A stretch of 29,488 nt of DNA, taken from the IMG/VR virus record IMGVR_UViG_3300042199_000081, positions 1 through 29,488 of that record. One strand, given 5' to 3'. Within the stretch, counting starts at the first letter, position 1, and each line of letters opens with the position of its first letter. The position numbers were made by a program, and so were the translations under genes. Shown one piece after another: positions 1,403 through 18,406 of this stretch. This DNA is from a virus. Its lineage: Duplodnaviria; Caudoviricetes. Below the pieces are notes generated by a model that was not told the DNA's origin, did not search any database, and was given only the letters and a program-made list of their open reading frames with translations.

Positions 1403-4400
1403 CTATTCCGTGCGCGATGCCTTGTCAAGCAGGTTCTTCTGCTTGATCACGGAAGTCTGCAATGCCCGTCGCACGGCAGCGATTGCCTCCTGCTGTTCTG
1501 GAGTCGCACCCTTCGACACCTGCCGCAACTTGCGAAGTTCGTTCTCGGTCTTTGAGACGATCTCGTTGAGGGCGACCTTCTCTGGGTCGAGACCTTCGAC
1601 CGCAGACTGAAGACGCTCGGCGCTGGTCGGCGATTCGACTTCCCGAACGCGCAGGGCGGTGGGGGCCAGCGAGTTCGCGATCTCGTAGTACTGCCGGGAC
1701 ACCGATCGCCTGTCGTTGGCTGCGTCTCCGACGAACGACCGCATGATCGGAATGTCGTTGAGTTCGGCCTTGCTTGGGTCGGACATCGCCGTGTAAAGCC
1801 TGTCGAGCAGGCGTCCCGTTCCGCTCAGGTAGTATCCAGCGAGGTAGCGAAGCGTGTCTGGGCTGGCGTCCACAAACCCAGACTCGAACTCGTCACCTCC
1901 TGTAGCGGAGTTGAGAGACTGCGCGAGCGTGCGCCAGCCTTCTGGGGTGAACTCGAACGCCATCTGCGAGTCTGGCTGCTGCACTCGGCCCATCTGCTCT
2001 CGGTAGATCGGGCGACCAGCAAAGTCGGTGTTGGCGGTGATCTCGGCGATAGGGCGGGCCATCGTCGGAGCAAGGCTCGTCAAGAGACCTTCGGTTCCAC
2101 TCTTGATGCCGCTTCCTCCGATCGGGTTGAACGCCGCGAGCGCGTCGTTGAACGTGCCTCCGATGACGTCCGATGCACGGTCGGTTCCGTTGATCGCTGC
2201 CTCAAGCCTGACCCCAGCCGACACGAGTACGTTGTAGCCGTACGGCATCGGCAGGCTGATGTACTTTCCGCTTCCGCTTGGATCGAAGAAGAAAATCTTT
2301 GCGGTCTTGTCCTCGTCTCGGAGGTTGTCCCAGCGCGACTGCCCACGCTCTTCGTCTTCGCCGCCCATAGCACGGGCCATCGCGGCCATGACGTACCCGA
2401 ACAGGATCAGGTGCGGCATCGTGAGAGCGGCCCTGACAGGGTTGCGGATCAACCCAGAGATGATGTTGGCGTTGCCCTGAAGAGCGGCATTCAAGAACAC
2501 GTACCAAGTGTTGAGCGCGGGCTTCGCCAGTCCTCCCTTGGAGAAGTCCACGGTGATGTCTCGGCCAGCGAGCGCGGCGGTCTGAACGCTGTCGCCAGCC
2601 GCAAGACGCTGCTCGAACTGGGCAAGACGAGACGCGGTCTCCGCCGCCGCAAAGAACGCGGTGTACCAGCCGAACAGGGTCTTCGCGAGAGACCTGTCGT
2701 TTGGATCACGGCGCTCTACCCGCCGCGCAAGCGCCTCGAAGTCCGTCCTCTTGACGTCAAGGTCGTTCTCCTTCCAGTAGACCTGACCTCCTCCAGCGGC
2801 GAGGAACCGACGGTAGGTTCCCGTGGCGTTCCCATTTCCGAGCCACTCGTCGCGCATCACGCGAGCGAAAGCCAGAGGCCAACGACTCAGCATCCCAGCG
2901 GTGTCCATGAATCCTCTGGTCACCATGTTGTTCAATGTCGCAGTACCGACGTCGCGCAGCATGTTGACGGGCGCGAACGCTGGGTTCGCGGGACCAGTCG
3001 TCATGTACCTCCAGACGTTGTTGACCGCCCGAAGGCCGCGCTCCCACGCACGGAGGTCCATCGACGGCTGGAGCATCGCATCGGCGAGACGCCTGTTGTT
3101 GATGCGGATCACGACCATGTCCCCAGCCACGTAGTCGTGTCCGTTGATGGTCATCGGCTCGTCCACATAGACTCCGAAGTGACGACCGTCGCTGGTCCAT
3201 GTAGGGTCGTGGACCACGCGGACCGCTCCGTCCACGACGATCCGTCGGGTCGGTCGCACGACCTCGCCCCATGCCCTGTCGTTGATCGCCCGCATCATTC
3301 GCAGGAACCGCTGTCCGACGTCGTTCCTCGCGATGCGCCTGATCGTGTCCTCGTGGACGTATGCCACCTGCGAGGTGATGCCAGACGCTTCGCTTCGGCG
3401 TCCAGCGGCCATCGGCATTCCCCGACCAGTCGTCGAGAGACCGCGACCGTACTGAGGACCCATCTCCTCGAAGTCGGCGTCCCAAGGGTCACGCGCTGCG
3501 ATTCCACGGAGCGGGACGTACCGCTTGTACTCAGCGTTGATCGCGGCGTAGACCTCTGGCCTCACGAGACCAGCGTCGATCCGGGCGTCGAGCGCCTCTT
3601 GCAGCATCATCCGCCACTCATCGGCGAACCGCTCGAACACAGGCAGGCGACCGCTCCGCTGTACACGGGCGATCTCCGCCGCCGCGTCAGCGTTGGTCAT
3701 TCCCGACCCGCCGTCGGGTCGGGTCGGGTCGATTCGGGCGATGTAGCGGTTGCGCTCCTCCGCGTGCTGGGCGTAGAGGAACCGATCCATGTCGTCGAGC
3801 GAGATGCCAGCGACATGCTGACGACGAAGGAGATCGGCGTACCGAGCCTCCGCGTCCAGTTGCTGCTGGGCGATGTTACCCTGCAACAGGCGAGCGCCAA
3901 GGTACGGGTTCGCGACGTCGGCGAGCGCCGTTCCAGTACGCTCCTCGGCCACGCGGGTGGCACGAAGGACCTCGTCAAACCGATCGAGGTATCGGAGCGT
4001 CGCTTCGTCCTTGATTCCACGCACCCCACGGCGCATCGACATCATGGATTTGATGACCCGCTCGCCTGTCAATGGGTCCATTGCCGTCGATGGATCGGTC
4101 GGCAATGTCTCGTCCTCGACACGACCTTCGGTCCATGTCCACGACGGCATCAGACCAGTTTTCTGATCCGCAAACTTCGTCTCGAAGACATTGGCAGTCT
4201 TGTTCTGTTCGGCATACGGCCCGAAGTTGAGCCAACTGTTTTGCCCTCTGGTCTCGCTCGTGAGAGCGCCGACGGCAGAACCTGTGAACAGACGCACGTG
4301 GGCCTGCCATGCGTTCTCCTCTCCTTGCGCTCGGAATCCAGAGCCCTCCATTCCGTGTCCGAACGCATCATGCACGGCTCGGAACAGGTCGTTGGCGAGT

Positions 4401-7400
4401 ACTGGACGAAGCGGACCGTTCGGGTTCCCGAACGGCCACTTGATTCCCGTGTCTGCCAAAAGCGGATTCTGGGATGGATCGAAATCCGATGTCCCGAACC
4501 CAGCAGCGGTGTCGAACACACCCATCTGCTTGTTGCTGCGGAGATCGCGCATCGCACGCCAAGGCTTTCCTTCGTATGGGTCGCTGTTCTCGTCGAACAG
4601 CCAGAACCGATATCCAGCACTTTCAAGCGCCTTGTACTGCGCCGTCGTCTGCTTGATCAGGTTCTCATACGCCTCCGCCACCGTCGGGTCCGACGGGGAG
4701 TGCTGCATGTCTTCGTACGCCTGTGCGATTCGACGGGCTCTTTCCTCGTCCACCATCGCATAGCGTGCCTGCCGCTTCAGGTTGATTCCGTTGTCTTTGG
4801 CGTATTGTTCCGCTACTTGGACGATCGACGGGTCTGGTCCCGTAGCGCCTTCGACAACTGGCGCACCTTCAAGCGGCGAATAGACTCCAGCCGTTCGCTG
4901 CCCTCCTCGGTCTCGACTGAGTTGATCTGAGGATTCTGGACGCCTTGAGTAGGAAATCTCCCCGACGACACCTCTTCCTTGAGGCGATCCATCGCCCGAG
5001 AACCGACCAGTCTGATCAGTTCCTCGACGTTGGAGTCTGGATTCGATGGACCGCGCGGTGTAGTTGCTGATGGTTTCATTGGTGCTTGCCTTGCTGTATC
5101 CTAGCCGCTTCGCCGTGTCGATGATGTAGAACCAGCGGACAGCCTGAAGCGCAGACGGCTGCATGTCGTCGCCAGTCGCCTTCTTCCACTCCTCGTTGAA
5201 GAGTTCGCCAAAGCGGACGAACAGGTCGTGTTCTTCCTCCCCGACTGGAAGTCCCGTGTTCTCCTCGAACATCCCCTTGAACTGGGCTCGGATGAACCGA
5301 GACTCCCAGAGGTCCACGGTCGTGTAGCGGGAATCCCCGAGCGCGTTCATGGTGTAGGCGCCGACCTTCGGGCCGAACATGAACAGGCGCGGCACGACGT
5401 CCGACGTTCCCGATGCGTACTCGACGACGCGGCGGACCTTCCCGACCTCGCCGACTCCGCCCTTGTAGCCTAGAGACTTCTTCTCCTCGGAAAGGTTCTT
5501 GATGGTGTCGGTCTGCATCATGTATTCGAGCGCGGCATCCCACGAACCAAGCCGCTCGGCGATCTTTTCGACGGACTTGATCACCTTCAACTTGTTTGGA
5601 GCGGAGTTGCCGCTGATCTCGTACGGACCCGTGACTCCCTTGGGTGCGCCCTTGTCGTTGACACCGAACTCGAATGCGTCGAAGTTTCCCTTCGCCATCC
5701 AATGGTCGAGAAGCATCACCATGTCGGTGATGTTGGCGGCGAGCGCCGTGTTCGGAGACGTCACGCCAGCCAAGAACCTAGCCACCCGCATCTCTTCGTC
5801 GGTGAGAGGGCGCTTGTAGTGGGCCTCTAGGAACCCGCGCGTGGCCTTCCAGTCGTTCTCGTAGTAGTCCGCGAACCTCCTATTCTCCTTCCCAAGCCAT
5901 GCAGACACGTCTTGGACGGCCCTGCGAGCGGCCTCCCTGATGTTGCGGGCGTCAGGCTTCAACTGGCCGCGACCGCGCCTGAGAAGAGCCGGGAACCCAG
6001 CCGCTGGTCCAAGGAAGAACGCATCCTCGGTCTTGAACTTCCGAGGCGGCTCCCCTCCAGCGATTCGCATTGCTGCGCCGATCGCTCCGCCAGTCTGGTT
6101 GCGGCGCGACATCATCGCGAGACCGTTCTTGGCACGTTCGATGAACTCGGGAGACATGTCGAGGACCGTGTTGGTGCGCCACGGCTCCGCTCCCCTCTGA
6201 TCTATGGTTCCGACGCCAGCCTTAGTCAAAGTCCCCGCGTTCATCTTCTTGACAAACTTCTGGATGATCTTCGGAAGGACGTCGTCGTAGAACTTCACGT
6301 TGCCCTTGCCAGCGACGCTTTCTGGGTTCTGACGCAGGGCCTTGTTCACCTGCGATCCAGTAGCGAACGCGATGCTGGTGTACCCCATCTCGATCGCGTC
6401 TAGGACGATGTTCCTGAGAGCGAGGTTGACGAAGCCCTCTGTGTCGGCACGCTTGCCTAGATCGCGTGCCTCTCCACCGACCTTCTCTGCGGCGATCTCG
6501 GCCTCGCGCATCGACTGGTATCGGCGCGGGTTCTGGTTGCCCTTCTCGTCCGTGTAAAGGACCTCGGCTCCGTCCTTGAACACACCGAACTTCTGGGAGG
6601 TCACGAACGGTGCGTCGCGTTCTGTGGCGGATGCCTCCTCTTCGGTCACTCCAGCACGTTGCCTCAGTTCCGCCTCGGCCAGTCGGAGGTCTCGTTTGGC
6701 CTCCTTGAGAAGTTTTTGCGGATCACGCATGGCATGACGCGCGAGAACATAGTCTCGGATGGCGTCAATCTCGGCTTCCGAAACGTCGCGTTCTGGAGAT
6801 ATGGCCCCTGCTGCGGGGCGCATTTCCTTGACGCGGTCAAAGAACCTCTCGATCCCATCGCGGCCCAAGGTTCCGTCACGGAATGTGCGGTAAAGTTCAA
6901 GCGGGAATGGAATAGCAAACCGTGTCTTGAACCAATCTTCAGCAGCGTCCAAGTAGTAGGAACTTGCAGCAAGGTTCACGGCAGGACGATTCAGGCGCCT
7001 CTCCTCTTCATCGAGCGGAGCCATCGGAGCCTTGAGTTCCTCGATACGCCGCTTCAGCGGGTGATCGGCAGGTAGCCGAACATCAGCACCCTGCAACTTC
7101 TCCTCTCCGCTGCGCCTTCCCTGCGCCCAGTCGCTCTGAATCTCGAACACGCGCATCACTCGGTCCACCAACGAGTTCGGGCGTAGCACCTGCGCTTCGT
7201 CGGTGCGGTAGTGGGCGACTGGGTTCAAGATGGCCCAGTTGTGGCTTTCAAAACCCAGATCGGAGTCAGGGGTCTCTGGCGACACATCCGAATAGGAACG
7301 CGGGAAACGCTTGCCCTTGATCTTGGGAAGGCGAAGGATCGTCTCGCGGTAGTTATGTCCACCAAGACCCACGAACTTGTACTTGGGTTCTCCGTACACC

Positions 7401-10400
7401 GCGCCCTTGTCTGGCTTGTTCGCTTCGACCAGTTCCTTCGCAATCTCGACCGCACGCGGGTTGCCAGACCTTTCGGCAATGTCGGTGATGAACTGCATAT
7501 GCTCGTCAGAGAGCCGTGTCTTGCCTAGCAAAGGGTCTTGCAGTTCCAGAAACGTTGACAACATGTCGTTCAACTGCGCGACACCAGAACTTGCCCGATC
7601 GACGTCCCTGCGGGCCACGCGAACCACATTCGCAATCTCGCGTTCAATCGCATCTTCGGCCTCTTCTTCAGTCTGGAAGACGGACGGATTAGTGTTGCCT
7701 CCAAGCGCGTATGAGTAGCGTGTGCCGTATTCGTCGGTCTTCTCCATCCAGACGCTGTATCCGCCGACGTCATCGTAGAAATGGACATGACCTGTCATCT
7801 CCAAGGCGCTTTCGAGCGCGTTATGCGCCTTGAATCGGTTCGGATTGACTGCATTTATCACTCGTTCGCCATAAGAACCGACAAGAGGGCGCTCCGCAGG
7901 ATTCTGGGAATCTGGGTCGGTTCCGAACGGGATTCGCGGCGGGTTGGCGCGGAACTCTTCGTAGAGTTGCTCGGCGAGAAAACGCCGCCTTGCAAACGGC
8001 TCGGACGCGCCAACGACCCGCTCGATCTGGATTCCGTTCTGGTCGAGGTAGTCGCTGATTTCCTGCTTGGATACCTTGTTGCCGCCAGCGAGGCGCAGGA
8101 AGTCCGTGATGCCAGACCACTCGACCTCGTCGGACTTGACCGTTCCCTTGTTCACGAGCGCGGCGATGCGCTGGGTCCACGCCTGCGGAGACAGCCGCTC
8201 GGAATCGACCGAGAGCATCTCCTTCTTCAGCCCAGAGTAGAGAGGCGGACGCCGCGACCCCATGATGTCCGAAGAAGCATCTGGTGGAATCTCCATCACG
8301 TCCTTCGGTAGCACCGCTATCTGCCCGTCCCGTGACGCCCACAATGGGTTCAACGGAGCGAACACCTTGGTTTCGCGTACTGGCCCGCGAGCAGCCTTCT
8401 TGAGGAGTTCGATGAGGCGAGCGTTCGTCTGAAGACCCTCCTCCGTAAAGTAGAACGTTGCCCTGTTCGGGACATCTCTGGGCTGCTCCAGACCATAGTT
8501 GAGAAGCGCAACGACCTCTGCTTCCTCTTCGTCGTTCAACTTGTCGTAGTTGAGGACTTGGTTGTTGAGCAGGCCCATGTTGGCTGCTCCAACCGTGAAC
8601 CGCGTTGCAACCTGCATTCCCGCTGGTGGTTGCGAACGACGGGAGTACGACGCCCCACGGTACGGGGCGAGCCCACGGATTCCCTTCTCAAGCGCATCGA
8701 ACGGTACGTCGTCGTAGGTTCGGCGAGCGGCCATGTCCTCGACCGTGAACACCTGATCGAGTACCTTCTCTCCCTCGGCCTCGTACAACTTGTCGGCGAC
8801 AGACCGAAGCGACGAGTCGTTGAGCCCGCGCATCTGGATGTTGTTGCCCTGCACGCGGACCCAGTTCTTGTCGAACCCGTATTCACGTGGATCGCCGAGA
8901 CCCATCGCAAAGTTGGCGCGGCGTCGGAACTGCTCGCGCTGTTCCTGCGGAACGCCAGCGGATTCCATGAATGCCGTGATACCTTCGTCTCCGACAATGG
9001 TTCTGACCATGTCCTGCGCTTCGTTGAAGTCCCAGCCGTCGCCCTGATCCATCTCCTCGATTCTGGCGTCGAACTGCTCAAGACTAGACTTCAGCGCATT
9101 GTCAGTAGCCGCTGATGCGAGTTGGCGGAAGTTCGACGCGAGATCGCGCACGGCTTCCTGCTGCGCCAGCATCTCGTGGTTCATGTCACCGACGTCGCCG
9201 TCCGCGAACAGGGGTCCGCTATCTGTCAGCCACCACTCGCCGCGCAGCGTGCGGCGCGACCCCATGATCTCGGGTGCCTGCGTCGGGCGCTCGTTGAAGT
9301 AGCCCTTGATCTGATTGGCGTTGAAGACGGCGATGTCTCGGTCTTCCGCTGGCTGTGCATCGAGTTCACGCACATACATTCCATCGAATCCAGCCGCTTT
9401 GATGGCATTGAGAACACGAGTCTGTTCAAGATTTTCGTAGTGGCCGTCGTCAATGTCATCTCGTGAAACACCAAACCGCCGCAACGCTTTGACATGCCGA
9501 GGATTGTCTGAATCGAACAGGTTCTTGGCACTCAAAACTGCGGGTATCACACGAGCGCCACCGCCTTCGCGAGTGAACTGTTCGATACCAATGTTGTCAA
9601 TGATGTCTTTCTGTCTACCTGTCGCGTAGTCCGACGCATCATCGGCGTTCGGCGAGAAGTAAAACAGACCGTCAGCACCCTCGGGTCCGCGCCTTCCCAT
9701 GTCTCCTTGGAACCGATCGAAGTCATCAGCCGTCCCGTGGAACACGGGAATCAGGTCGCCGTTCTCGTCAACGACCTGAGAGCCCTCGCTCCACGCCGCC
9801 ATCTCGGGGGTCATCTCCGAACGCCTGATCGGGCGCAGCGACATCATCGCCCGCCTGTCTCGGGGGTCGATCGACTGCATGTCCACGAACGGGCTGGTGG
9901 TCGGCTCGGTCGGGCTTTCCAAAGGTTCAGGGATCGGTTCAGCAGCGGCCTGCGCCTGCTCGGTCGCGGGCATCCTCGGCATCCTCGGGATGCTCGGCCT
10001 GCCACCAGACGCAGACTGGACGCTTGCGAGCGTCTGGGTGAGCATGGGAAGGATCGACGCCATCGCGTTGACCGCGCTGGCGAGGGCGCTGACGGTGGGC
10101 GCTCCCTCGGCCTTGAGAGCCTGCCCCGCCTGTTCGAGCGTTTGCCCCGCCTTCTGCATGGGCCGCTCTTCCTCTGGTGGCGCAGACAAGATCGTCGCAG
10201 GAACGCCCTGAGCGCCCTCCAAGGGCCTTCGGCTGAATGAGGCCCCTCCAGCCATCCCGCGCTCGGACTGGGCAGGAGAGGCCGCTCCGCCGCCCTGCTC
10301 GGGCGCTGGCTGGGTCGCCTGAGAATCAAGCCAAGCACGCATCCCCTCGCGGTATCGAGCCTCGGTCTCCCGGCGGGCCTGATCGAATATCCGCATCTCG

Positions 10401-13400
10401 GAGTCGAGTTTCCCGCTCATCCTGCTCTCGATTTCGTAGAGAGCCTGACGGGCCTGCGGCCCAGCAAACCCGCGCTTCGCCAACTGGTAGGCCATCCAAG
10501 AGCCGAACGATCGCAGGCTACGCTCGCGCTTGCCTTTGAACGCCGCGAGCCACTCGGCTCCAGCCTGAGCGGTCTGGCCTAGACCCTCTGTCTGGGTCTG
10601 GGCGACCGATTCCTCGGCGAACCTCTCCATCGTCGATCTGGTCTGGTAGGCACGCTCCTGCTCCCTGATGCGCTGGCTTGCCGAATCCTTCTGCTGCTGG
10701 CTGGCGTTCGGGTCGCGGAGGGTCCTGACGGCGTTCTGGTATCCCTCGGCGTCGGCAAGCGTCGCAACCGCAGCCCCGTACTGGGAGGCGTACCCGACAA
10801 GCACCTGCTCCTCGGTCATCGGGTTCCCCTCGGCATCCTTGAATGCGTCGGGCGTGGCTTCGAGCATGTAGTCGAGTCCGCCCCTGAGAGCAAAGTCTGG
10901 ATCGAGGAACAGCAGGTGTCCCATGTACTCGGCCAAGGCACGGCTCTGGACAACTCCCTTGTGACGAAGTTCGTGCATGAGGGTGGCGAAAGCATTGCGT
11001 CTGGTGAACGCCGTTCCTCCAGCCTTGCGGAGAAGGAACACCCCGTCTGGAGACGACTGCGCGAGATACGCTCCGTCGTTCTCGGTGTCCTTCTCGATGG
11101 TCCTGACGGAGCCGTCCTTCTGCCTGATCCTGTACACCACCTTGGCGTCGAGTATGGTCGGCTTCACGCCTCCTACTGGGGACAGAAGCCTGTCGCTTTC
11201 GCCTTCGGCAAGCGACTCGTCGGATACCTCGGACAACTCGACATCGACCTCGACATCCTCGTTGGTTGCTCCGTTCGTTTCCTTCGCTGTGAGGAGCCGC
11301 GAGGCGAACGGCGCGTCGTCGGCTCCGCTTGGTCCACGGGTGGCCTTCGACCCAAGGGCGGACTGGCGCATCTCAAGGCGCAGGGAGTTGATTCCCCTGT
11401 TGCGCTGGGCCACGGATGGCCTGACCACGGAGCCGACACGGATCGCCGACTGGGCATCGCGCTGCTCGCGGATCGACTGCTCGATGCCTCCGAACGCACG
11501 GGAGTCAACGACCTCGACAGACAGCCCGCTGGTGGCGGCGTCGGCCTCGATCGCGGCCCGTCTCGCCTCTGCGTCCTCGGACCTTGAGAACGGAAGCAGG
11601 TCAACGATCTGTCCTGCGCTGTTTCTGGTCACCACCGCAACGGTCGGCTGTTCCCCTGCGACCACGGTCGGGTTCCTGCCGAACAGGAAGTTGACGTCTC
11701 CAGCGTTCGCGGCGGACATCACGTCCTCCCGCATGGACGGATGCGCGTACACCACGGCGGTTGCGTTCGGGTTGTCGCGTGACAGCCCGACGACGCCGAT
11801 CGGCACGAGGCCGATTCGATCCATCTGCTCCCTCGACGCGCTGGTGAGCGCATTGTCGGAGTCGTCCTTCGGGACGAGGACTGCGGATCGCCTGCCAGAC
11901 GCGACCTCGTCGATCGCGTGCATGACCATCGCCTCGGTCCTCGCGTAGGCGCTGTTCGCGACAAGGTTCTCGCGTGCGATCCTGTCCTGCTTGTCGATCA
12001 TCGACTGGGCCATCGCCCCGAGAAGGCCGCGCTTCTCGGCGTCCTTGATCATCCGAGAACGAGCCCGAGACTCTCGCGCTGCCTTTCCGATAGTTGACTG
12101 CAACGGAGCGATCCCACCAAACATGAGACCGCCAGCGATGAATCCAGTACCCATCGCCTCGGCTGTCGATTCCGAGAAGAAGTCGGATTCGTATCCCGCC
12201 GGAATCCAGATCGCGTCGGAGATTTCCTGAGCGGCCTGCGGAAACGCCTCTTCGACGGCCTCGATGCCCGCGACCTTGGCCCCAGCGACTACGGCCCCTG
12301 CCGCCTTCTTTGCCGTTCCAAGAGGTCCACGGTGTCGTGCCATCGATTCCGACAGCCCGTCAAAGGTCTCCTTCACGGCCTCCGGCGCGAACCTAGTCGC
12401 TTGGACCTTTCCAAACACGCGGCCAGCGCCCATGATGATCGGAACCTGAATGACGTTTCCGACGGTCTCGGACAAAAGTTCCGCTCCTCCAGCGAACGCG
12501 GCCTGCGACATGAGTTCGAGGTTCGACGGCCTTGCTGGGCGCGGAAGTCCTGCGGAACGAGCCGCCTCGTCCTGTTCCTTCCAGATCGAAAGCCTGTTCT
12601 GGTATGCCGACTCCGATGCGCTGAAGAAGAACGGGCTCGTCAGAAGCGCGGCGGCTTTCGGATTTCTGGTCATCAACGCTGGAACCGAATACGGAAGAGA
12701 TGCCAGAGCCGAACCAGTCATCTCCGCAGCCGATGTCCAGAATCCTCCTCCAGCGCGTCCCATGTATGCCCTTGCGTCCTCGGGGTTGTCTGGATCGACT
12801 CCCCTGACCGCTACGAGAGCGGCTGGGTTGCCACTAGAAACGACGCTGCTGGCGATGTCCCGACCGAACCTTCTTGCGGATTCGACAAAGTCCTCGCGAT
12901 CGGCTTCGATCTGCTCCGGCGACCTGCTTTCGGACGCTGAACGCTGCTGCTGTTGATTGCCGTCTCCAGAGTAGAACGCGAGGTCGTGAGCCCACCGCGC
13001 CACGCCAGCAGCCGTCGATCCAGCGAGATTTTCCGAACCAACGACAAAGTTGTGCATCAATCCGTAGTATCGCGCCTGCCACTTGGTGAAGGCGTCCTTG
13101 TCGTATTTGCTCCATCGAAGATGTCCGAGAGCATTCTCGTCGCCACGCGAATACGCGGAAGCGCGGAGTCCCACAAACTCCTCGACCTTGGGATCGTTGA
13201 TCTCGATCCCCTGAGTTCCGTCCGGTCTGTCCACCTTCACAAGCCCGCCGATGCCAGCCTCGAACAACTGGGACTTGGTGTCCTCGTATGCGAGGTCGTA
13301 CATCTCCTTCTGCACCTTGCGCTCAATTTCGCCAATGTCGATTGATTCAGGCGACACGTATGTGTACGACTTGGTGTTTCTGGACAACCCCACCGTAAAG

Positions 13401-13507
13401 GTTTCGGATGGAACAAAGTTTGCATTTTCGGCAAGAGACCGCCGAATGGCTTCTAGTTCTTCCGATCGGCGACGCATGAAGTACTGCTGCGGCGAAGTGT
13501 CGTCCAT
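1403..13507 (-). CDS. Giant polyvalent internal-virion/DNA-ejection protein (4,034 aa) with HExxH peptidase-like, ART-PolyVal-like, EIQSD, HhH glycosylase-like, HDxxGH and LPD38-like modules
   Basis: Single uninterrupted ORF. The likely start MDDTSPQQYF at 13507 overlaps the upstream stop (TGATG). It is the last and largest of three genes after the nozzle, the position of podoviral ejection proteins. Motifs include HELRH, VFHGT...FYFS...ASDYA...AAGFDG...AVFNANQIK, GGHNYRE/EIQSDW, GPKVGAY..N/TVDLW/QAVRW, FRAVHDAFGH/ETRGQNSW and TVDFSKGG/FLNAALQG/PMPYGY/NTDFAGRPI. Confidence 0.88.
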   Translation of the reverse strand: MDDTSPQQYFMRRRSEELEAIRRSLAENANFVPSETFTVGLSRNTKSYTYVSPESIDIGEIERKVQKEMYDLAYEDTKSQLFEAGIGGLVKVDRPDGTQGIEINDPKVEEFVGLRASAYSRGDENALGHLRWSKYDKDAFTKWQARYYGLMHNFVVGSENLAGSTAAGVARWAHDLAFYSGDGNQQQQRSASESRSPEQIEADREDFVESARRFGRDIASSVVSSGNPAALVAVRGVDPDNPEDARAYMGRAGGGFWTSAAEMTGSALASLPYSVPALMTRNPKAAALLTSPFFFSASESAYQNRLSIWKEQDEAARSAGLPRPARPSNLELMSQAAFAGGAELLSETVGNVIQVPIIMGAGRVFGKVQATRFAPEAVKETFDGLSESMARHRGPLGTAKKAAGAVVAGAKVAGIEAVEEAFPQAAQEISDAIWIPAGYESDFFSESTAEAMGTGFIAGGLMFGGIAPLQSTIGKAARESRARSRMIKDAEKRGLLGAMAQSMIDKQDRIARENLVANSAYARTEAMVMHAIDEVASGRRSAVLVPKDDSDNALTSASREQMDRIGLVPIGVVGLSRDNPNATAVVYAHPSMREDVMSAANAGDVNFLFGRNPTVVAGEQPTVAVVTRNSAGQIVDLLPFSRSEDAEARRAAIEADAATSGLSVEVVDSRAFGGIEQSIREQRDAQSAIRVGSVVRPSVAQRNRGINSLRLEMRQSALGSKATRGPSGADDAPFASRLLTAKETNGATNEDVEVDVELSEVSDESLAEGESDRLLSPVGGVKPTILDAKVVYRIRQKDGSVRTIEKDTENDGAYLAQSSPDGVFLLRKAGGTAFTRRNAFATLMHELRHKGVVQSRALAEYMGHLLFLDPDFALRGGLDYMLEATPDAFKDAEGNPMTEEQVLVGYASQYGAAVATLADAEGYQNAVRTLRDPNASQQQKDSASQRIREQERAYQTRSTMERFAEESVAQTQTEGLGQTAQAGAEWLAAFKGKRERSLRSFGSWMAYQLAKRGFAGPQARQALYEIESRMSGKLDSEMRIFDQARRETEARYREGMRAWLDSQATQPAPEQGGGAASPAQSERGMAGGASFSRRPLEGAQGVPATILSAPPEEERPMQKAGQTLEQAGQALKAEGAPTVSALASAVNAMASILPMLTQTLASVQSASGGRPSIPRMPRMPATEQAQAAAEPIPEPLESPTEPTTSPFVDMQSIDPRDRRAMMSLRPIRRSEMTPEMAAWSEGSQVVDENGDLIPVFHGTADDFDRFQGDMGRRGPEGADGLFYFSPNADDASDYATGRQKDIIDNIGIEQFTREGGGARVIPAVLSAKNLFDSDNPRHVKALRRFGVSRDDIDDGHYENLEQTRVLNAIKAAGFDGMYVRELDAQPAEDRDIAVFNANQIKGYFNERPTQAPEIMGSRRTLRGEWWLTDSGPLFADGDVGDMNHEMLAQQEAVRDLASNFRQLASAATDNALKSSLEQFDARIEEMDQGDGWDFNEAQDMVRTIVGDEGITAFMESAGVPQEQREQFRRRANFAMGLGDPREYGFDKNWVRVQGNNIQMRGLNDSSLRSVADKLYEAEGEKVLDQVFTVEDMAARRTYDDVPFDALEKGIRGLAPYRGASYSRRSQPPAGMQVATRFTVGAANMGLLNNQVLNYDKLNDEEEAEVVALLNYGLEQPRDVPNRATFYFTEEGLQTNARLIELLKKAARGPVRETKVFAPLNPLWASRDGQIAVLPKDVMEIPPDASSDIMGSRRPPLYSGLKKEMLSVDSERLSPQAWTQRIAALVNKGTVKSDEVEWSGITDFLRLAGGNKVSKQEISDYLDQNGIQIERVVGASEPFARRRFLAEQLYEEFRANPPRIPFGTDPDSQNPAERPLVGSYGERVINAVNPNRFKAHNALESALEMTGHVHFYDDVGGYSVWMEKTDEYGTRYSYALGGNTNPSVFQTEEEAEDAIEREIANVVRVARRDVDRASSGVAQLNDMLSTFLELQDPLLGKTRLSDEHMQFITDIAERSGNPRAVEIAKELVEANKPDKGAVYGEPKYKFVGLGGHNYRETILRLPKIKGKRFPRSYSDVSPETPDSDLGFESHNWAILNPVAHYRTDEAQVLRPNSLVDRVMRVFEIQSDWAQGRRSGEEKLQGADVRLPADHPLKRRIEELKAPMAPLDEEERRLNRPAVNLAASSYYLDAAEDWFKTRFAIPFPLELYRTFRDGTLGRDGIERFFDRVKEMRPAAGAISPERDVSEAEIDAIRDYVLARHAMRDPQKLLKEAKRDLRLAEAELRQRAGVTEEEASATERDAPFVTSQKFGVFKDGAEVLYTDEKGNQNPRRYQSMREAEIAAEKVGGEARDLGKRADTEGFVNLALRNIVLDAIEMGYTSIAFATGSQVNKALRQNPESVAGKGNVKFYDDVLPKIIQKFVKKMNAGTLTKAGVGTIDQRGAEPWRTNTVLDMSPEFIERAKNGLAMMSRRNQTGGAIGAAMRIAGGEPPRKFKTEDAFFLGPAAGFPALLRRGRGQLKPDARNIREAARRAVQDVSAWLGKENRRFADYYENDWKATRGFLEAHYKRPLTDEEMRVARFLAGVTSPNTALAANITDMVMLLDHWMAKGNFDAFEFGVNDKGAPKGVTGPYEISGNSAPNKLKVIKSVEKIAERLGSWDAALEYMMQTDTIKNLSEEKKSLGYKGGVGEVGKVRRVVEYASGTSDVVPRLFMFGPKVGAYTMNALGDSRYTTVDLWESRFIRAQFKGMFEENTGLPVGEEEHDLFVRFGELFNEEWKKATGDDMQPSALQAVRWFYIIDTAKRLGYSKASTNETISNYTARSIESRLQRRGTDQTGRFSGDGSPQGRGVVGEISYSRRPESSDQLSRDRGGQRTAGVYSPLEGAPVVEGATGPDPSIVQVAEQYAKDNGINLKRQARYAMVDEERARRIAQAYEDMQHSPSDPTVAEAYENLIKQTTAQYKALESAGYRFWLFDENSDPYEGKPWRAMRDLRSNKQMGVFDTAAGFGTSDFDPSQNPLLADTGIKWPFGNPNGPLRPVLANDLFRAVHDAFGHGMEGSGFRAQGEENAWQAHVRLFTGSAVGALTSETRGQNSWLNFGPYAEQNKTANVFETKFADQKTGLMPSWTWTEGRVEDETLPTDPSTAMDPLTGERVIKSMMSMRRGVRGIKDEATLRYLDRFDEVLRATRVAEERTGTALADVANPYLGARLLQGNIAQQQLDAEARYADLLRRQHVAGISLDDMDRFLYAQHAEERNRYIARIDPTRPDGGSGMTNADAAAEIARVQRSGRLPVFERFADEWRMMLQEALDARIDAGLVRPEVYAAINAEYKRYVPLRGIAARDPWDADFEEMGPQYGRGLSTTGRGMPMAAGRRSEASGITSQVAYVHEDTIRRIARNDVGQRFLRMMRAINDRAWGEVVRPTRRIVVDGAVRVVHDPTWTSDGRHFGVYVDEPMTINGHDYVAGDMVVIRINNRRLADAMLQPSMDLRAWERGLRAVNNVWRYMTTGPANPAFAPVNMLRDVGTATLNNMVTRGFMDTAGMLSRWPLAFARVMRDEWLGNGNATGTYRRFLAAGGGQVYWKENDLDVKRTDFEALARRVERRDPNDRSLAKTLFGWYTAFFAAAETASRLAQFEQRLAAGDSVQTAALAGRDITVDFSKGGLAKPALNTWYVFLNAALQGNANIISGLIRNPVRAALTMPHLILFGYVMAAMARAMGGEDEERGQSRWDNLRDEDKTAKIFFFDPSGSGKYISLPMPYGYNVLVSAGVRLEAAINGTDRASDVIGGTFNDALAAFNPIGGSGIKSGTEGLLTSLAPTMARPIAEITANTDFAGRPIYREQMGRVQQPDSQMAFEFTPEGWRTLAQSLNSATGGDEFESGFVDASPDTLRYLAGYYLSGTGRLLDRLYTAMSDPSKAELNDIPIMRSFVGDAANDRRSVSRQYYEIANSLAPTALRVREVESPTSAERLQSAVEGLDPEKVALNEIVSKTENELRKLRQVSKGATPEQQEAIAAVRRALQTSVIKQKNLLDKASRTE

Positions 13508-15153
13508 CAGAGTGCGCTCCCAGTCCTTCGCGTGGTCTTCGGAGTAGTTTCTTCCGATGCAGGCTCCTTGGCTGGCGCGGCCTTCTGTTCTCGGGATCGG
13601 TTTGCGATGGCCGATGACTGGGCCGCGATCCTCTCGAAGGCCACGGCGTCGATCAGGTTCGGATCGGTCTTGTCCCACTTGAACACGCTGGACGCCCACA
13701 TGTCAACCTGAGACAGGTATCGGGAGTAGTCCTTGACGGCCTGCATCTCCTGCGGGGTCATGTTCGATGGATCGGCCACGTACGGAATGTCGCGGATGGG
13801 AATCGTCGCGCCCATGTTTCCGTACGCGGCGAGGTGCTGCACCTGAGTCAGCGACGACATCTCGGTCACGATGTCTTCTTCCTGCGAGACAAGACTCCCG
13901 ATGAACCCGATCTGCGAGTTCGGGTCGATCTGCCTCAACTGCGGAGGCATGACGAACGACTCGATGTTCATCCACGCCATCATGGTGATCTTGTCGCGAG
14001 GCTCCTTCGAGCCGCGCAGGGCCGTCACGTTCTCGTCCCTCACGCTCGGGGCCTTCTGCATCGTCGGCGGAAACATAGACACGTCGGCGTTCGGATTTTT
14101 CCGAAGCAGCATCTCGGCGGTCGGGTTGGGGACCGCACGATCTCCTTGGCTCTGGAGCCAAGGCGCGAGCGCGGCGTTGTTCTTGAACTGCTGGATTTCC
14201 GCCTTTGCCGATCCCGTGAAGTCACGTCCCCGTCCAGTCGCAACGGCGTTGCCAGCCTGCATGGAGAGTTCCATCGCCCTCTGCGGGTCGATCGACGCCA
14301 TTTCCAGCAACGCCTCTCCAGACGCTCCCTGAAGGGAAGGCACAGCCGCGATCATCCGAGAAATGGAATCCCGAGATCGCTTGACCCCGACCGCAAACTG
14401 CATCCTCTGGTCGAGTTCGCTGCGCATCTTCTGGCGCATCGTCATCAGCGACATCCACTCGTTCGCCGCCACGGGAATCACGCCTCCCTTGACGCGAAGT
14501 GCTGGTGTTCCATCCTTCAGGCGAACGAGGTCAAACGATTCCATGCCCGCGTAGTCGCCGTTGGTTATCCCGTCTGCGGCAACAGAGAAGTCGGAGTCGT
14601 CCGTGATCCGTCCCTTCCAAGCACCCTTCATCCACGACATCTCTCCGCCATCACCACCCGGCTCCTCGGCCTTCAGGAAGTATGGTGTCTGGTCGATCGT
14701 CGGCACGACCTGACCGATCGCCTCGCCGAACATGGAGTCGATCTCTGCCCGTCCCTTGTCGATGTCGAAGACTCCCTGAGCGATTGCCTTCTCTCGCTCG
14801 GCGTTCGCCATGTCGATCTCGTCATTGCGCCTCATTACCCCCTTCCGGTACTGGGCTTCCTCGGCGACGCCTTCCGCGTTGATCCTGAAGTTGACGAGTT
14901 CCTTCTGACGCTCGAACGCGGTCTCTGACGCACGCTCCGCACGCGACTCCGCACGCTGTTCCGCAGACAGGGCATCCTCGCGCTCCTGCTGGCGCTGCTC
15001 GCGGGCCATCCCACTCCCGATGGTCGTTTCCATCGCAGCGCCAGCCCCAGCAAACGGGTTGTTTGGGTCGTATGCCTGAAAGCCTCTTGCGATTCCAAGA
15101 CCGATGTCCTGAAGTCGTTCGCGAGTGAGAAACTGGTTGTCTGCGCTCTTCAT
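13507..15153 (-). CDS. Putative internal virion / DNA ejection protein (548 aa)
   Basis: Start MKSADNQ overlaps the upstream stop (ATGA 15150-15153). N-terminal Gly/Ala segment (GLGIARGF...AGAGAA) followed by a Q/E/R coiled coil. Middle gene of the ejection trio by position. Confidence 0.65.
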   Translation of the reverse strand: MKSADNQFLTRERLQDIGLGIARGFQAYDPNNPFAGAGAAMETTIGSGMAREQRQQEREDALSAEQRAESRAERASETAFERQKELVNFRINAEGVAEEAQYRKGVMRRNDEIDMANAEREKAIAQGVFDIDKGRAEIDSMFGEAIGQVVPTIDQTPYFLKAEEPGGDGGEMSWMKGAWKGRITDDSDFSVAADGITNGDYAGMESFDLVRLKDGTPALRVKGGVIPVAANEWMSLMTMRQKMRSELDQRMQFAVGVKRSRDSISRMIAAVPSLQGASGEALLEMASIDPQRAMELSMQAGNAVATGRGRDFTGSAKAEIQQFKNNAALAPWLQSQGDRAVPNPTAEMLLRKNPNADVSMFPPTMQKAPSVRDENVTALRGSKEPRDKITMMAWMNIESFVMPPQLRQIDPNSQIGFIGSLVSQEEDIVTEMSSLTQVQHLAAYGNMGATIPIRDIPYVADPSNMTPQEMQAVKDYSRYLSQVDMWASSVFKWDKTDPNLIDAVAFERIAAQSSAIANRSREQKAAPAKEPASEETTPKTTRRTGSAL

Positions 15154-16100
15154 GAAGGTCCCCATCCGAAGTTGAGGTTTCCGACGCCAGCGGCCTGCGA
15201 AGGCGGAACCCAACCGTACGGGTTAGCCATTGATCCGCTTGCGGCTCCAGACGCGGCTCCAGCCGCTCCGCCAGCCGCTGGTGCGAGCATTCCAGCGAGA
15301 CCAGCGCCGAACATTGCGCCTCCGAAAGAACCCATCGCGGACCCGAACGCACTCGTCATCGCTCCAGCGAGGTTCGCTGCCTGACTTTGGTTCTGAAATG
15401 CGATGTTGTAGCCCTGCTGAATCAGGTTCATGCTGTTCGTCAGGGCTCCCTGCTGCATGTTCGCGATGTTGCCGCTGTATGTCTGGTAGATGTTGGACAG
15501 GTTTGCCGCCATCGACTGCTGGATTCCAGACAGTCCCTGACCCATCTGGGCCGACAGCGTCGATAGTCCCTGCGCCCGAGAGGCTTCCAGCGACGACAAC
15601 TGCCCAGCGTACTGCTCCCTGATCGCGCCCTCCTGAAGGACGCCCTGACGACCGATCGCCTCAAGTCGCTGCTGCCCGAACGTTGTCTGACCAAGACCAG
15701 AGAAGGCGTTTGCTGCTGCCGCACGCTGCTGCGCCTTCTCTGTCTGCTGACGTTGCAACGCGATCGTCGAGTCGCGGCCCACGCGCATCTCCGCAATGGC
15801 CTTGTCCATTCCAGCGCCGTACTGATGCCGAGCCTGCTCGAAGTAGTTGGTGAAGTCGGTTCTGGCCCGCTCCATCTCCTGACGGTAGAGACCGATGTTC
15901 GACTCGCGTTCCCGAGTGTACTGGGTGAGGATCGGCTTGAACATGCCCTGATACTCGGTGGCAAGGCCCCTGTACTCGTTTTTCGCCTGCTGTGCCAAGG
16001 CAGCAAGAGCCCTTCGTCTGGAACGGGCTCCAAATGCTCCGAAGATGCCGCTTGCTCCAAGCAGTCCACCGCCAACAAGCGCCATCGCCAACGGTGCCAT
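15150..16100 (-). CDS. Putative DNA ejection/pilot protein, P22 gp7 / T7 gp14-like position (316 aa)
   Basis: Start MAPLAMALVGGGLLGASGIFGAFG overlaps the nozzle stop (TGATG). Gln/Ala/Gly-rich helical body with Gly-rich hydrophobic ends, typical of first-ejected proteins. Confidence 0.7.
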   Translation of the reverse strand: MAPLAMALVGGGLLGASGIFGAFGARSRRRALAALAQQAKNEYRGLATEYQGMFKPILTQYTRERESNIGLYRQEMERARTDFTNYFEQARHQYGAGMDKAIAEMRVGRDSTIALQRQQTEKAQQRAAAANAFSGLGQTTFGQQRLEAIGRQGVLQEGAIREQYAGQLSSLEASRAQGLSTLSAQMGQGLSGIQQSMAANLSNIYQTYSGNIANMQQGALTNSMNLIQQGYNIAFQNQSQAANLAGAMTSAFGSAMGSFGGAMFGAGLAGMLAPAAGGAAGAASGAASGSMANPYGWVPPSQAAGVGNLNFGWGPS

Positions 16101-18406
16101 CACACGCCTCCTCTGCTCTTGCCTACCTGAGAAACGACTGCCGAAGCACGCTCTATCGACCAAGGCTTTCCGTCTGATGCGATGGTCAGGTACATCGCTT
16201 CTGCTCTGATCCTGCACTTCTGCGCGGTGTTTCGACCGTACACGATCGATCCGATCTGGGTTACCTCGGAATCCGGGAACGAGGCCCCGGACACCAGCGC
16301 GTTGTCCTTCACGTCGGGGGTGATCGGGTTCTGGCGAACGGTCACCATCGCGCTGTTGGGAGAAGCCGCGTCTGGATCGACCTGCTCGTACTCGATGTCC
16401 CAGTTCAGTCCGTTCTGCAAGGCGATCGTCCACGTGTCGGTCTGATCCCACCGCAGGACCCAGTTCCAAGGTCCGTTGTAGACCCTGTCCGTTCCTGACG
16501 CGAACGGATCGTCCTGCGTGTACTGCCCGAACGGACGCACCGCGAACCTGCCGTCGATGAAGTTGGTCGGCGGGTCCGGGACCGGGGTTGCGTCGTCGCC
16601 GTCGTATGTGTTCGCGAAGACCGTGGTCGATGCGTTGCCGCCGTCCACGACGAGCGGATTGATGTTGATTGCGAACAGCGTGTCGGTCTGGAGCCCGAGC
16701 GCCGACTGGGCCGTGTCGCCCGTGGACACCGACAGGACGATCTCGTTGTCGGCGCTTGCGTCGATGAACCCGCTCGGCAGTTCGTACTTGTCGTCCGCGA
16801 GATCGACACGCACCTCGTTCAGCATGAGCCTGTACGGCAACTGGCCGATGATCGGCCCGAACGTCAGGCTCGAACGCACGAACTGGAGGCGCTGCTGGTC
16901 CTCCTCCATCTCCGAGTTCCACCCGTCCACGCCGATCGGAAACTCCTTGTCGATGATGGAGATGGACTGCGTACCGCCCATGAACAGGCGACCGGAGTCC
17001 TGCCTGCTGGTCCCGACGTAACACGACGAGATCGGAGCGTAGATGTCTGGATCGGAGAACCGCTGCGGCCAGAAACTGTCTGTCTTGAGGTCGTAGAACA
17101 GGTGGACGCTCGCTGATTCCGTCCCGCTGACGCTCAGGAACATCCAGACGCCCTCCCTGTCTGGGTCGTAGCAGAGGCACGGGAAGACCTGACCAGCCGC
17201 GAGCGCGTTGCCGATGAGCGACGCAACCTGCGACTGGATGAGAATGGGCCGCTGGTCGTTGGTGGTCGAGATTTTGCCGTCGGACGTGATCACCGTTGAC
17301 GACGCGCCAGTAGGGCTTCCGTCAGAGGTGAGCAGCGACTCAAGCGTTCCTCCGCCAAGAGGGCCGCTGCCGCCGATCGCTGGCGTTCCGAAGTCCAGCC
17401 GCAGGAAGAACGAGTCGAGACGTCCTGCGCTGACCCTGCTTCCACGGTTGAAGTTGAAGTCGTTGGGAGCGAGGTAGTAGAGGCCGTCGTTCGCGAGAAT
17501 CCAAGCGCCCTTCTCCTGAGACTGACACCACGCCCTGCGCCCAGCGATCCCGATGCTGCGCGTGAGGTTGACCATGCTCGCGCTTTCCTCGAACACGGGG
17601 TCGGTGGTCAGGAACGAGAACGAGTTCGTGCAGGCGAACATGAGCCCGCTCTGGGAGAAAGGGAAGATCGCGACAATCGGGTCTCCGAGCGTCCCGTAGT
17701 CGGCGTAGGTCGATCCGCTCACGGCCCCGAGGATGTCTGCTCCAGTCCACCCGTCTACTGGGGCTCCTGTTCCACCCGCTCCAGTATGCGGAAACGGCTG
17801 GTCTGGGGCGCACGCATACCAGATGTTTGGGGTACTCTTGTATCCAGCAAGAACGATCCGCGGACCCCATCGGCAGATCAGCGTTGCCCGTTCACCTGTC
17901 GCCACGGAGTCTGGGTCTGTCCTAAACGGACCGTGGTCGTTCGTGGAATCGAGGCCCCACACGGCAACGGCATTCGACGCCGATGGTGTCGTCAACTTCA
18001 CGAAGACGTAGTGGTCGCCATCGACGAAGTAGAAGTTTTCGTTGAACTGGACGCCCTCGACTAGGGTGTCCGTGTTCAGAAACGTCGTGCTTGCCTGCCC
18101 ACCGAACAAGGTCGCGGTCGCAAGGATGTCAGACCGTGGATTGGCGTAGTAGACCTTGCCAGCCCTGACGAAGATCAGTTTCTCGACCAGAGCGCCAGAC
18201 TCGTACACGCGGTACGTTGACATGAACTGGACGCCGCCGTCGTTGTACTTCTTGGTCCCGTTGCGGGTGCTGATCCTCGTCCTTCCGTTCCATACGTCGA
18301 TCGGCATCACGTTCAGGCACGACGGAGTCATCCCCTGCGGAACGGCGCTGTAGGACGACTGCTCCGTGAAGCCCTTGAAAGGAAGTTGGATCGGGATGTG
18401 GGTCAC
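16100..18406 (-). CDS. Tail nozzle / tail tubular protein B-like (P22 gp10 / T7 gp12 analogue, 768 aa)
   Basis: Size, position between fibre and ejection genes, PFKGF...NV...GR...R.G N-terminus and beta-propeller-like repeats (IGIAGRRAW, WILANDGLY, YDPDREGVW, FYDLKTDSFW). GTG start in a GTGA overlap. Confidence 0.7.
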   Translation of the reverse strand: MTHIPIQLPFKGFTEQSSYSAVPQGMTPSCLNVMPIDVWNGRTRISTRNGTKKYNDGGVQFMSTYRVYESGALVEKLIFVRAGKVYYANPRSDILATATLFGGQASTTFLNTDTLVEGVQFNENFYFVDGDHYVFVKLTTPSASNAVAVWGLDSTNDHGPFRTDPDSVATGERATLICRWGPRIVLAGYKSTPNIWYACAPDQPFPHTGAGGTGAPVDGWTGADILGAVSGSTYADYGTLGDPIVAIFPFSQSGLMFACTNSFSFLTTDPVFEESASMVNLTRSIGIAGRRAWCQSQEKGAWILANDGLYYLAPNDFNFNRGSRVSAGRLDSFFLRLDFGTPAIGGSGPLGGGTLESLLTSDGSPTGASSTVITSDGKISTTNDQRPILIQSQVASLIGNALAAGQVFPCLCYDPDREGVWMFLSVSGTESASVHLFYDLKTDSFWPQRFSDPDIYAPISSCYVGTSRQDSGRLFMGGTQSISIIDKEFPIGVDGWNSEMEEDQQRLQFVRSSLTFGPIIGQLPYRLMLNEVRVDLADDKYELPSGFIDASADNEIVLSVSTGDTAQSALGLQTDTLFAININPLVVDGGNASTTVFANTYDGDDATPVPDPPTNFIDGRFAVRPFGQYTQDDPFASGTDRVYNGPWNWVLRWDQTDTWTIALQNGLNWDIEYEQVDPDAASPNSAMVTVRQNPITPDVKDNALVSGASFPDSEVTQIGSIVYGRNTAQKCRIRAEAMYLTIASDGKPWSIERASAVVSQVGKSRGGV

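Follow-up and report, generated by a model that had tools for sequence, protein, structure and literature searches.

A recurring junction motif separates exchangeable cassettes in a giant LPD38 phage protein and may mark the sites of their proteolytic release

The IMG/VR record IMGVR_UViG_3300042199_000081 is a partial phage genome (Caudoviricetes) with no terminal repeat, and its 29,488 nucleotides make up the window analyzed here. Along the minus strand, genes for the terminase, portal, major head protein and tail are followed by two helical genes and then by a giant open reading frame (ORF) encoding a polyvalent protein with an LPD38 domain. We report that a short peptide motif recurs eight times in this giant protein (Table 1), at the seams between a constant N-terminal part, a series of exchangeable cargo cassettes and a constant C-terminal core. 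Comparison with homologous sequences strongly supports a junction code of this kind, and a predicted zinc peptidase within the N-terminal part is a candidate for the enzyme that would read it.

The whole open frame corresponds to 4,098 amino acids (aa), and the product has 4,034 aa if translation begins at the ATG at position 13507, the likely true start, which overlaps the upstream stop codon (TGATG) and has a GGGAG site ahead of it. All aa numbers given here follow the 4,098-aa open frame, in which E846 of the initial annotation of this DNA is E910. Two Pfam families match the giant ORF above their cut-offs, ART-PolyVal (PF18760, aa 1311-1473) and LPD38 (PF18857, aa 3788-3985). The ORF closes a podovirus-like morphogenesis block, and the terminase, portal, major head and tail matches upstream on the same strand confirm a portal-terminase packaging setting. 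The giant LPD38 protein is likely an ejection protein, and the detection of homologues in virions suggests that it, too, would be a component of the particle. The two genes directly upstream (13507-16100, minus strand), helical and rich in Gln and Ala, have no family match; they occupy the slot in which podoviruses encode their smaller ejection proteins.

Table 1. Features of the giant LPD38 protein in the window, in order of translation.
Feature	Position	Strand	Remarks
Giant LPD38 polyvalent protein	1403..13507	minus	open frame reaching 13699, 4,098 codons
Constant N-terminal region (aa 65-794)	11318..13507	minus	no junction motif; family comparison
Predicted zincin-like metallopeptidase region (aa 795-1130)	10310..11317	minus	HELRH 10961-10975, Glu1030 10610-10612, helical insert between
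Ninth, weaker motif-like peptide DPDFALRGG	10877..10903	minus	inside peptidase region; rank 9 in motif model
Motif 1, ASFSRR	10226..10243	minus	starts aa 1153; low-confidence coil in model
Proline-rich spacer, ~125 aa (aa 1156-1286)	9851..10225	minus	belongs to constant N-terminal part in most relatives
Motif 2, AMMSLR	9833..9850	minus	starts aa 1284
F8, ART-PolyVal ADP-ribosyltransferase domain	9269..9832	minus	PF18760, E 5e-17
Motif 3, IMGSRR	9251..9268	minus	starts aa 1478
F10, ~200 aa	8654..9250	minus	no family match; order swapped with ART in P0035
Motif 4, ASYSRR	8636..8653	minus	starts aa 1683
F15, ~123 aa	8267..8635	minus	no family match; missing from P0002
Motif 5, IMGSRR	8249..8266	minus	starts aa 1812
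F2, ~710 aa, predicted GNAT-like core, large inserts	6119..8248	minus	both segment ends used; model pTM 0.54
Motif 6, AMMSRR	6101..6118	minus	starts aa 2528
F11, ~380 aa	4958..6100	minus	weak DUF7178 match, E 0.0033, 17.8 bits, below cut-off of 27
Motif 7, ISYSRR	4940..4957	minus	starts aa 2915
F3, ~297 aa, conserved HDxxGH...EE	4049..4939	minus	phrog_3170; 1,169 homologues
Motif 8, SMMSMRR	4028..4048	minus	starts aa 3218; opens constant core
Constant C-terminal core (aa 3225-4098)	1403..4027	minus	LPD38 at 1745-2338; Pfam and homologue searches

All eight motifs translate on the minus strand just as the initial annotation had described them. Its pattern, x-[SM]-[FYMG]-S-[RLM]-R, matches the giant protein eight times against 0.07 expected from 20,000 shuffles, a ratio to be read with the caveat that the pattern was composed after the sites had been seen. 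An unbiased search for exact words in the giant protein alone returned a best log10 P of -7.7, within the range of the best of 30 shuffles (-5.5 to -8.4), and proof was therefore sought out of sample, in homologues. These were the best 120 of the 172 proteins found with the core, 34 of them close and 86 distant; with the window protein, the close family numbers 35, to which five more relatives were added later. A motif model trained on 31 relatives (P0004-P0034), with neither the window protein nor the three relatives nearest to it included and with a pattern derived from the earlier one as seed, ranks the eight sites 1 to 8 among 4,091 windows. A wider, earlier model that had drifted onto a conserved non-junction column still placed all eight within the top 13. 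The five relatives found later contain 26 motif sites where 3.4 were expected.

The pattern of the initial annotation occurs 32 times in the 34 close relatives (1.6 expected) and four times in the 86 distant ones (2.5 expected), where the shorter [FY]SR occurs at twice its expected number, 142 times against 71. The family consensus drawn from 163 central sites is [ASIP]-[MRQL]-[FYM]-[SA]-x-R, in which the R was fixed partly through the site-calling procedure. The RR pair is a dialect of the window protein's own lineage. The ninth peptide in Table 1 has a family-conserved form, DPx[FLY][AS][MLI]RGG, about 25 residues past HELRH; it might serve as a pseudo-substrate or a structural element, or be coincidental. 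Across 14 other ORFs, the motif scan found one weak match, DGRFAVRP, at aa 622 of a late gene (16100-18406, minus strand), which is likely due to chance.

When the 35 close proteins are split at the motif and the pieces clustered, a constant N-terminal part appears in 34 of them and a constant core of 865-880 aa in 32, the three other cores being split by chance matches or truncated. Between the two lie cassettes of about 20 families, each family nearly constant in length but varying in its order, gained, lost and reordered across the family in 30 architectures among 35 proteins, some of these owing to missed motif sites. In P0035, F10 comes before ART, P0002 has no F15 and bears two motifs 13 aa apart, and 15 motif pairs in the close family are separated by 40 aa or less, as cassette loss would leave. 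BLAST breakpoints called blind to the motif fall on the same seams: 118 of 454 clusters lie within 10 aa of a motif (25 expected, maximum 41), and a breakpoint lies no more than 20 aa away from 125 of the 163 central motifs (43 expected), relatives not being independent in either count. Homology among relatives breaks at the motif, in support of the module boundaries that the initial annotation had placed there. Motif density is 0.13 per 1,000 aa in the core against 2.9 in the cargo region, toward which training was biased, and each module has one copy regardless of its fold. The motif is common to cassettes that are unrelated to one another, and so does not belong to any one fold.

A peak of breakpoints on the motif is also what one would expect if the motif had arisen as a side effect of the shuffling of cassettes, being a patch of homology for crossover that is kept at the peptide level as a folding cap or spacer and has no reader. 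Among 11 genes (the window and 10 of 15 loci, five having been dropped as too short), motif pairs with identical residues use the same codon in 189 of 458 cases (41%) where 138 (30%) were expected, and the upstream half of the motif stays with the cassette ahead of it when this moves and, in F2, may pair as a strand. Synonymous codons nevertheless vary widely, with five Ser codons, AGC as well as TCN, and all six Arg codons in use, and within the window 26 of 85 pairs share a codon against 20 expected. The motif moreover persists where cores are less than 30% identical and between unrelated folds, and stand-alone homologues of F3 simply end at the domain. We consider a by-product of shuffling rather improbable and, to judge from codon usage, the constraint on the motif is mainly at the peptide level. 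A DNA-level cassette system of the shufflon or integron type was rejected: the junctions have no conserved DNA crossover site, and the codons vary.

The flanks of the motif are rich in Pro, Gln, Arg and Glu and are disorder-prone, and motif 1 lies in a coil with a predicted local distance difference test (pLDDT) below 50 in the structure model. In the F2 model, a short confident strand at the edge of the domain is made up of the hydrophobic half of motif 6, which calls for caution about the term free linker. The flanks and motif 1 are in line with the disordered linkers that the initial annotation expected. The dialects are lineage-specific (MFAMR, RMSxR and MGSRR among them), and motifs of the same protein at non-homologous seams share 3.24 of six residues against 2.65 when permuted, an excess centered on positions -3 to +3. 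An [FY]S core is common to very divergent peptidase clades. One distant clade hints at an FQ dialect, which is confounded with kinship of the core. As candidates for known signals, a twin-arginine (Tat) signal, a dibasic OmpT-type site and a prepilin peptidase site were discarded on account of a variable +1 position and unfitting flanks.

The core is homologous to giant proteins in 337 records of cultured phages, at less than 30% identity; a scan of viral contigs with the core found no locus. An iterated motif model over-fitted the distant set (192 sites, compared with 140-160 on shuffled proteins), and fixed patterns and positional tests were used instead. Just ahead of the core, [FY]-S-[RLI] is present in 40 of 81 anchored distant proteins (5.3 expected), and in a third set, the best 119 of 1,172 proteins, the pre-core motif is found in 43 (6.3 expected) or, with a looser pattern, in 64 (9.2 expected). 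The motif also stands ahead of the HExxH domain in 27 of 100 distant proteins (7.7 expected) and behind it in 28 of 100 (13.9 expected), and it falls inside that domain in four of 116 proteins of the third set. In Bcep22 gp75, FSV-type motifs flank the peptidase on either side, with sites predicted near aa 3209, 3434 and 3686; in Vibrio phage D79 a site is predicted near aa 2154. In an Escherichia coli homologue of 2,787 aa, three of the domain seams bear [FY]SR. Some distant proteins without the tested form carry other candidate dialects. In P0122, P0125, P0148, P0153 and P0169, F3 is followed by a junction-like QRYMP, which suggests a further dialect.

The bracketing of the peptidase domain on both sides in distant relatives is what release sites would produce, and it argues against the notion that the motif is an uncleaved docking or threading signal for the packaging or ejection machinery, one that might, for example, pace the unfolding and refolding of modules through the tail channel. 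Such a signal would account for one copy per module of whatever fold and for the near-absence of the motif from the core, and several polyvalent proteins are delivered uncut (PMC5512222). The other virion proteins of the window, including the two upstream that are likely co-ejected, nonetheless do without the motif, and on the whole we find docking or threading unlikely.

The region at aa 795-1130 is predicted from its conserved residues to be a zincin-like metallopeptidase. All 31 aligned proteins keep H909, E910, H913 and E1030 unchanged, HExxH or HExxxH is kept in all 40 close members, and 116 of the 119 proteins of the third set match the peptidase profile; the HELRH site singled out in the initial annotation, together with its downstream Glu, is conserved family-wide. 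In the structure model, HExxH and Glu1030 both lie on helices, with strands ahead of the HExxH helix. A profile of polyvalent-protein peptidases picks this region, weakly, as the best domain in 28 of the 35 close proteins. Fold searches of the peptidase model returned nothing at E<=0.001, with only helical-hairpin matches at Z<=5.5 and no zincin; sequence searches of the PDB with the peptidase, the core, F11 and the Bcep22 peptidase gave nothing significant. The ESM Atlas places the peptidase near clusters bearing LPD23 and LPD1, with low counts of shared features, and an exhaustive search with the region recovered relatives in its own family only, 17 of them at E<=1e-10. A predicted complex of the region, zinc and a 32-residue peptide bearing motif 8 scored 0.00, a result that counts neither way. 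P0080, a distant homologue, has a decayed peptidase site (HEAVGEY) and no pre-core motif.

Cleavage at the motif need not be the work of this domain. The cutter could be a protease of the host, or a phage protein whose gene lies elsewhere, with the HExxH domain doing some other job such as digesting peptidoglycan during ejection; a cell-wall role has been proposed for the peptidase of phi24B gp47 (bioRxiv 10.64898/2026.04.10.717836), the contig is incomplete, the [FY]S core is shared by very divergent peptidase clades, and P0324 has a pre-core motif without HExxH. Dialects that differ between close lineages, by contrast, are easier to square with a private reader than with a host enzyme that is conserved, HExxH or HExxxH occurs in none of the 15 other window ORFs tested, and proteases specific for dibasic sites do not fit because the Arg-Arg pair is not conserved. 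We regard an outside cutter as distinctly improbable.

The explanation that we favor, and hold to be modestly probable, is that the motif is a seam signal cut by the protein's own predicted zinc peptidase, freeing the cassettes of a polyprotein that is likely packaged in the virion. That some form of cleavage takes place at the motifs, all readings together, is likely. A range of observations weighs against self-cleavage. The model of the peptidase region has a predicted template modeling score (pTM) of 0.44, the giant protein has no Pfam peptidase match, and the profile-profile link to other polyvalent-protein peptidases is weak (probability 26-28%). One of the four third-set proteins that lack the catalytic motif, P0324, still has its pre-core site, P0346 has HExxxH and no pre-core site, and the partial contig leaves room for a cutter encoded elsewhere. 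The pre-core motif in its tested form is missing from 41 of 81 distant homologues and, even with the looser pattern, from 55 of the 119. The dialect tracks the peptidase clade and the core clade together, so that co-evolution with the peptidase is inseparable from kinship. To these must be added the excess of shared codons and the strand at motif 6 described above. From the literature, packaging or transfer leaves N4 virion RNA polymerase, ArdC and TraC1 uncut (PMC5512222), the passages covered on LPD38 homologues report no processing, and P1 DdrB, a protein reported to be processed, has no clear motif where a 76 kDa product would result.

The cargo of the window protein consists of six cassettes and one spacer. 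Each segment had been described as a self-contained module; the first segment, however, is a proline-rich spacer and not an effector or enzyme. ART is the sole cassette with a Pfam match above cut-off; by segment clustering, it occurs in 7 of the 35 close proteins with four different downstream neighbors. F2 is best seen as one module because its model is confident up to both segment ends and its structural matches span residues 1-713. Those matches include VIA (Z 8.6, root mean square deviation 3.4, 142 residues aligned) and a number of GNATs (Z 6-7.7), all with scores that common matches also reach; Foldseek returned nothing at E<=0.001, and the ESM Atlas places F2 in unnamed clusters. F2 may be an enzyme with a GNAT fold that carries large inserts, which we offer as a lead only. 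F2 with a conserved EIQSDW is widespread among distant LPD38 proteins. F11 has no solved relative in a PDB sequence search. F3 is also the C-terminal domain of many proteins of 225-500 aa, many of which end where the domain ends. Its HDxxGH...EE pattern resembles a metal site; in stand-alone homologues of about 400 aa the pattern is C-terminal, and two of these have a weak MATCAP match below cut-off. Among P0004-P0034, F6, F9 and F16 are interrelated and, as do F11, F7 and F22, tend to fill the last cargo slot, directly ahead of the core.

The window protein is a phage-type polyvalent protein of the kind defined by Iyer, Burroughs, Anand, de Souza and Aravind in 2017, with disparate domains that include LPD and PolyVal members, a portal-terminase setting and a variable architecture. 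It shares with the proteins of that study LPD38, ART-PolyVal, HExxH, the portal-terminase block, the variable build and a proposed autoproteolysis, and it differs from them in that its peptidase lies in the constant N-terminal part with a helical insert and most of its cassettes match no curated family (PMC5512222). Processing of phage polyvalent proteins by their metallopeptidases was predicted there, so that autoproteolytic release had indeed been proposed before, as the initial annotation held; neither a cleavage site nor a junction motif is named in the main text, where the word "linker" occurs 0 times (PMC5512222). The portions covered of PMC9503650 and PMC9024508 add neither, and we found no paper on the junction motif in the literature searched, subscription journals being mostly uncovered. 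Giant LPD38 homologues of cultured phages have in some cases been detected in virions or found to be essential (bioRxiv 10.64898/2026.04.10.717836, PMC9144972, PMC5155283). The core is homologous to those of phi24B gp47, Sp5 ORF80, Bcep22 gp75 and JC1 gp69, at 25-29% identity, whereas the cargo of the window protein is another.

A junction consensus at domain boundaries, as in self-processing viral polyproteins, is present in the window protein. Polyproteins of eukaryotic RNA viruses are single chains with an embedded protease and a short, repeated junction consensus. The window protein resembles them in its one chain, its predicted embedded protease and its short repeated consensus, and it differs in being a virion protein of a double-stranded DNA phage, with a predicted metallopeptidase, exchangeable cargo and putative cleavage. 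The analogy has been drawn for polyvalent proteins (PMC5512222).

From homologues and gene order, we infer that the giant chain would be packaged in the virion and then ejected. The predicted zinc peptidase of the constant N-terminal part would recognize the motifs and, if catalytically active, cut at or next to them, freeing the cassettes, with the putative host-takeover or anti-defence roles suggested for them in the initial annotation, from an N-terminal part and core that would act as a delivery scaffold. Cleavage during or after ejection seems more likely than cleavage before packaging. Were all sites cut, the 445 kDa precursor would yield products of about 118, 14, 22, 23, 14, 81, 43, 34 and 97 kDa. 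Because each cassette bears half a motif at either end, recombination at the seams likely rebuilds a full site, and new cargo would then be processable at once.

It is plausible, if short of probable, that the LPD38 ejection proteins of many podoviruses are programmable polyproteins, each a self-cutting scaffold with a lineage-tuned peptide code and plug-in cargo that is released in the host. If this is true, the sequences of thousands of giant phage proteins would directly reveal their cargo boundaries. The 2017 prediction of zinc-peptidase processing had no mapped sites in the literature searched; with the motif come exact positions, predictions of product size, a catalytic mutant for comparison and dialect swaps as controls, and cultured phages have it too. 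Giant proteins that lack annotation can be divided by it into clean modules for use in functional screens, and it could point to the delivery of several proteins by a single virion.

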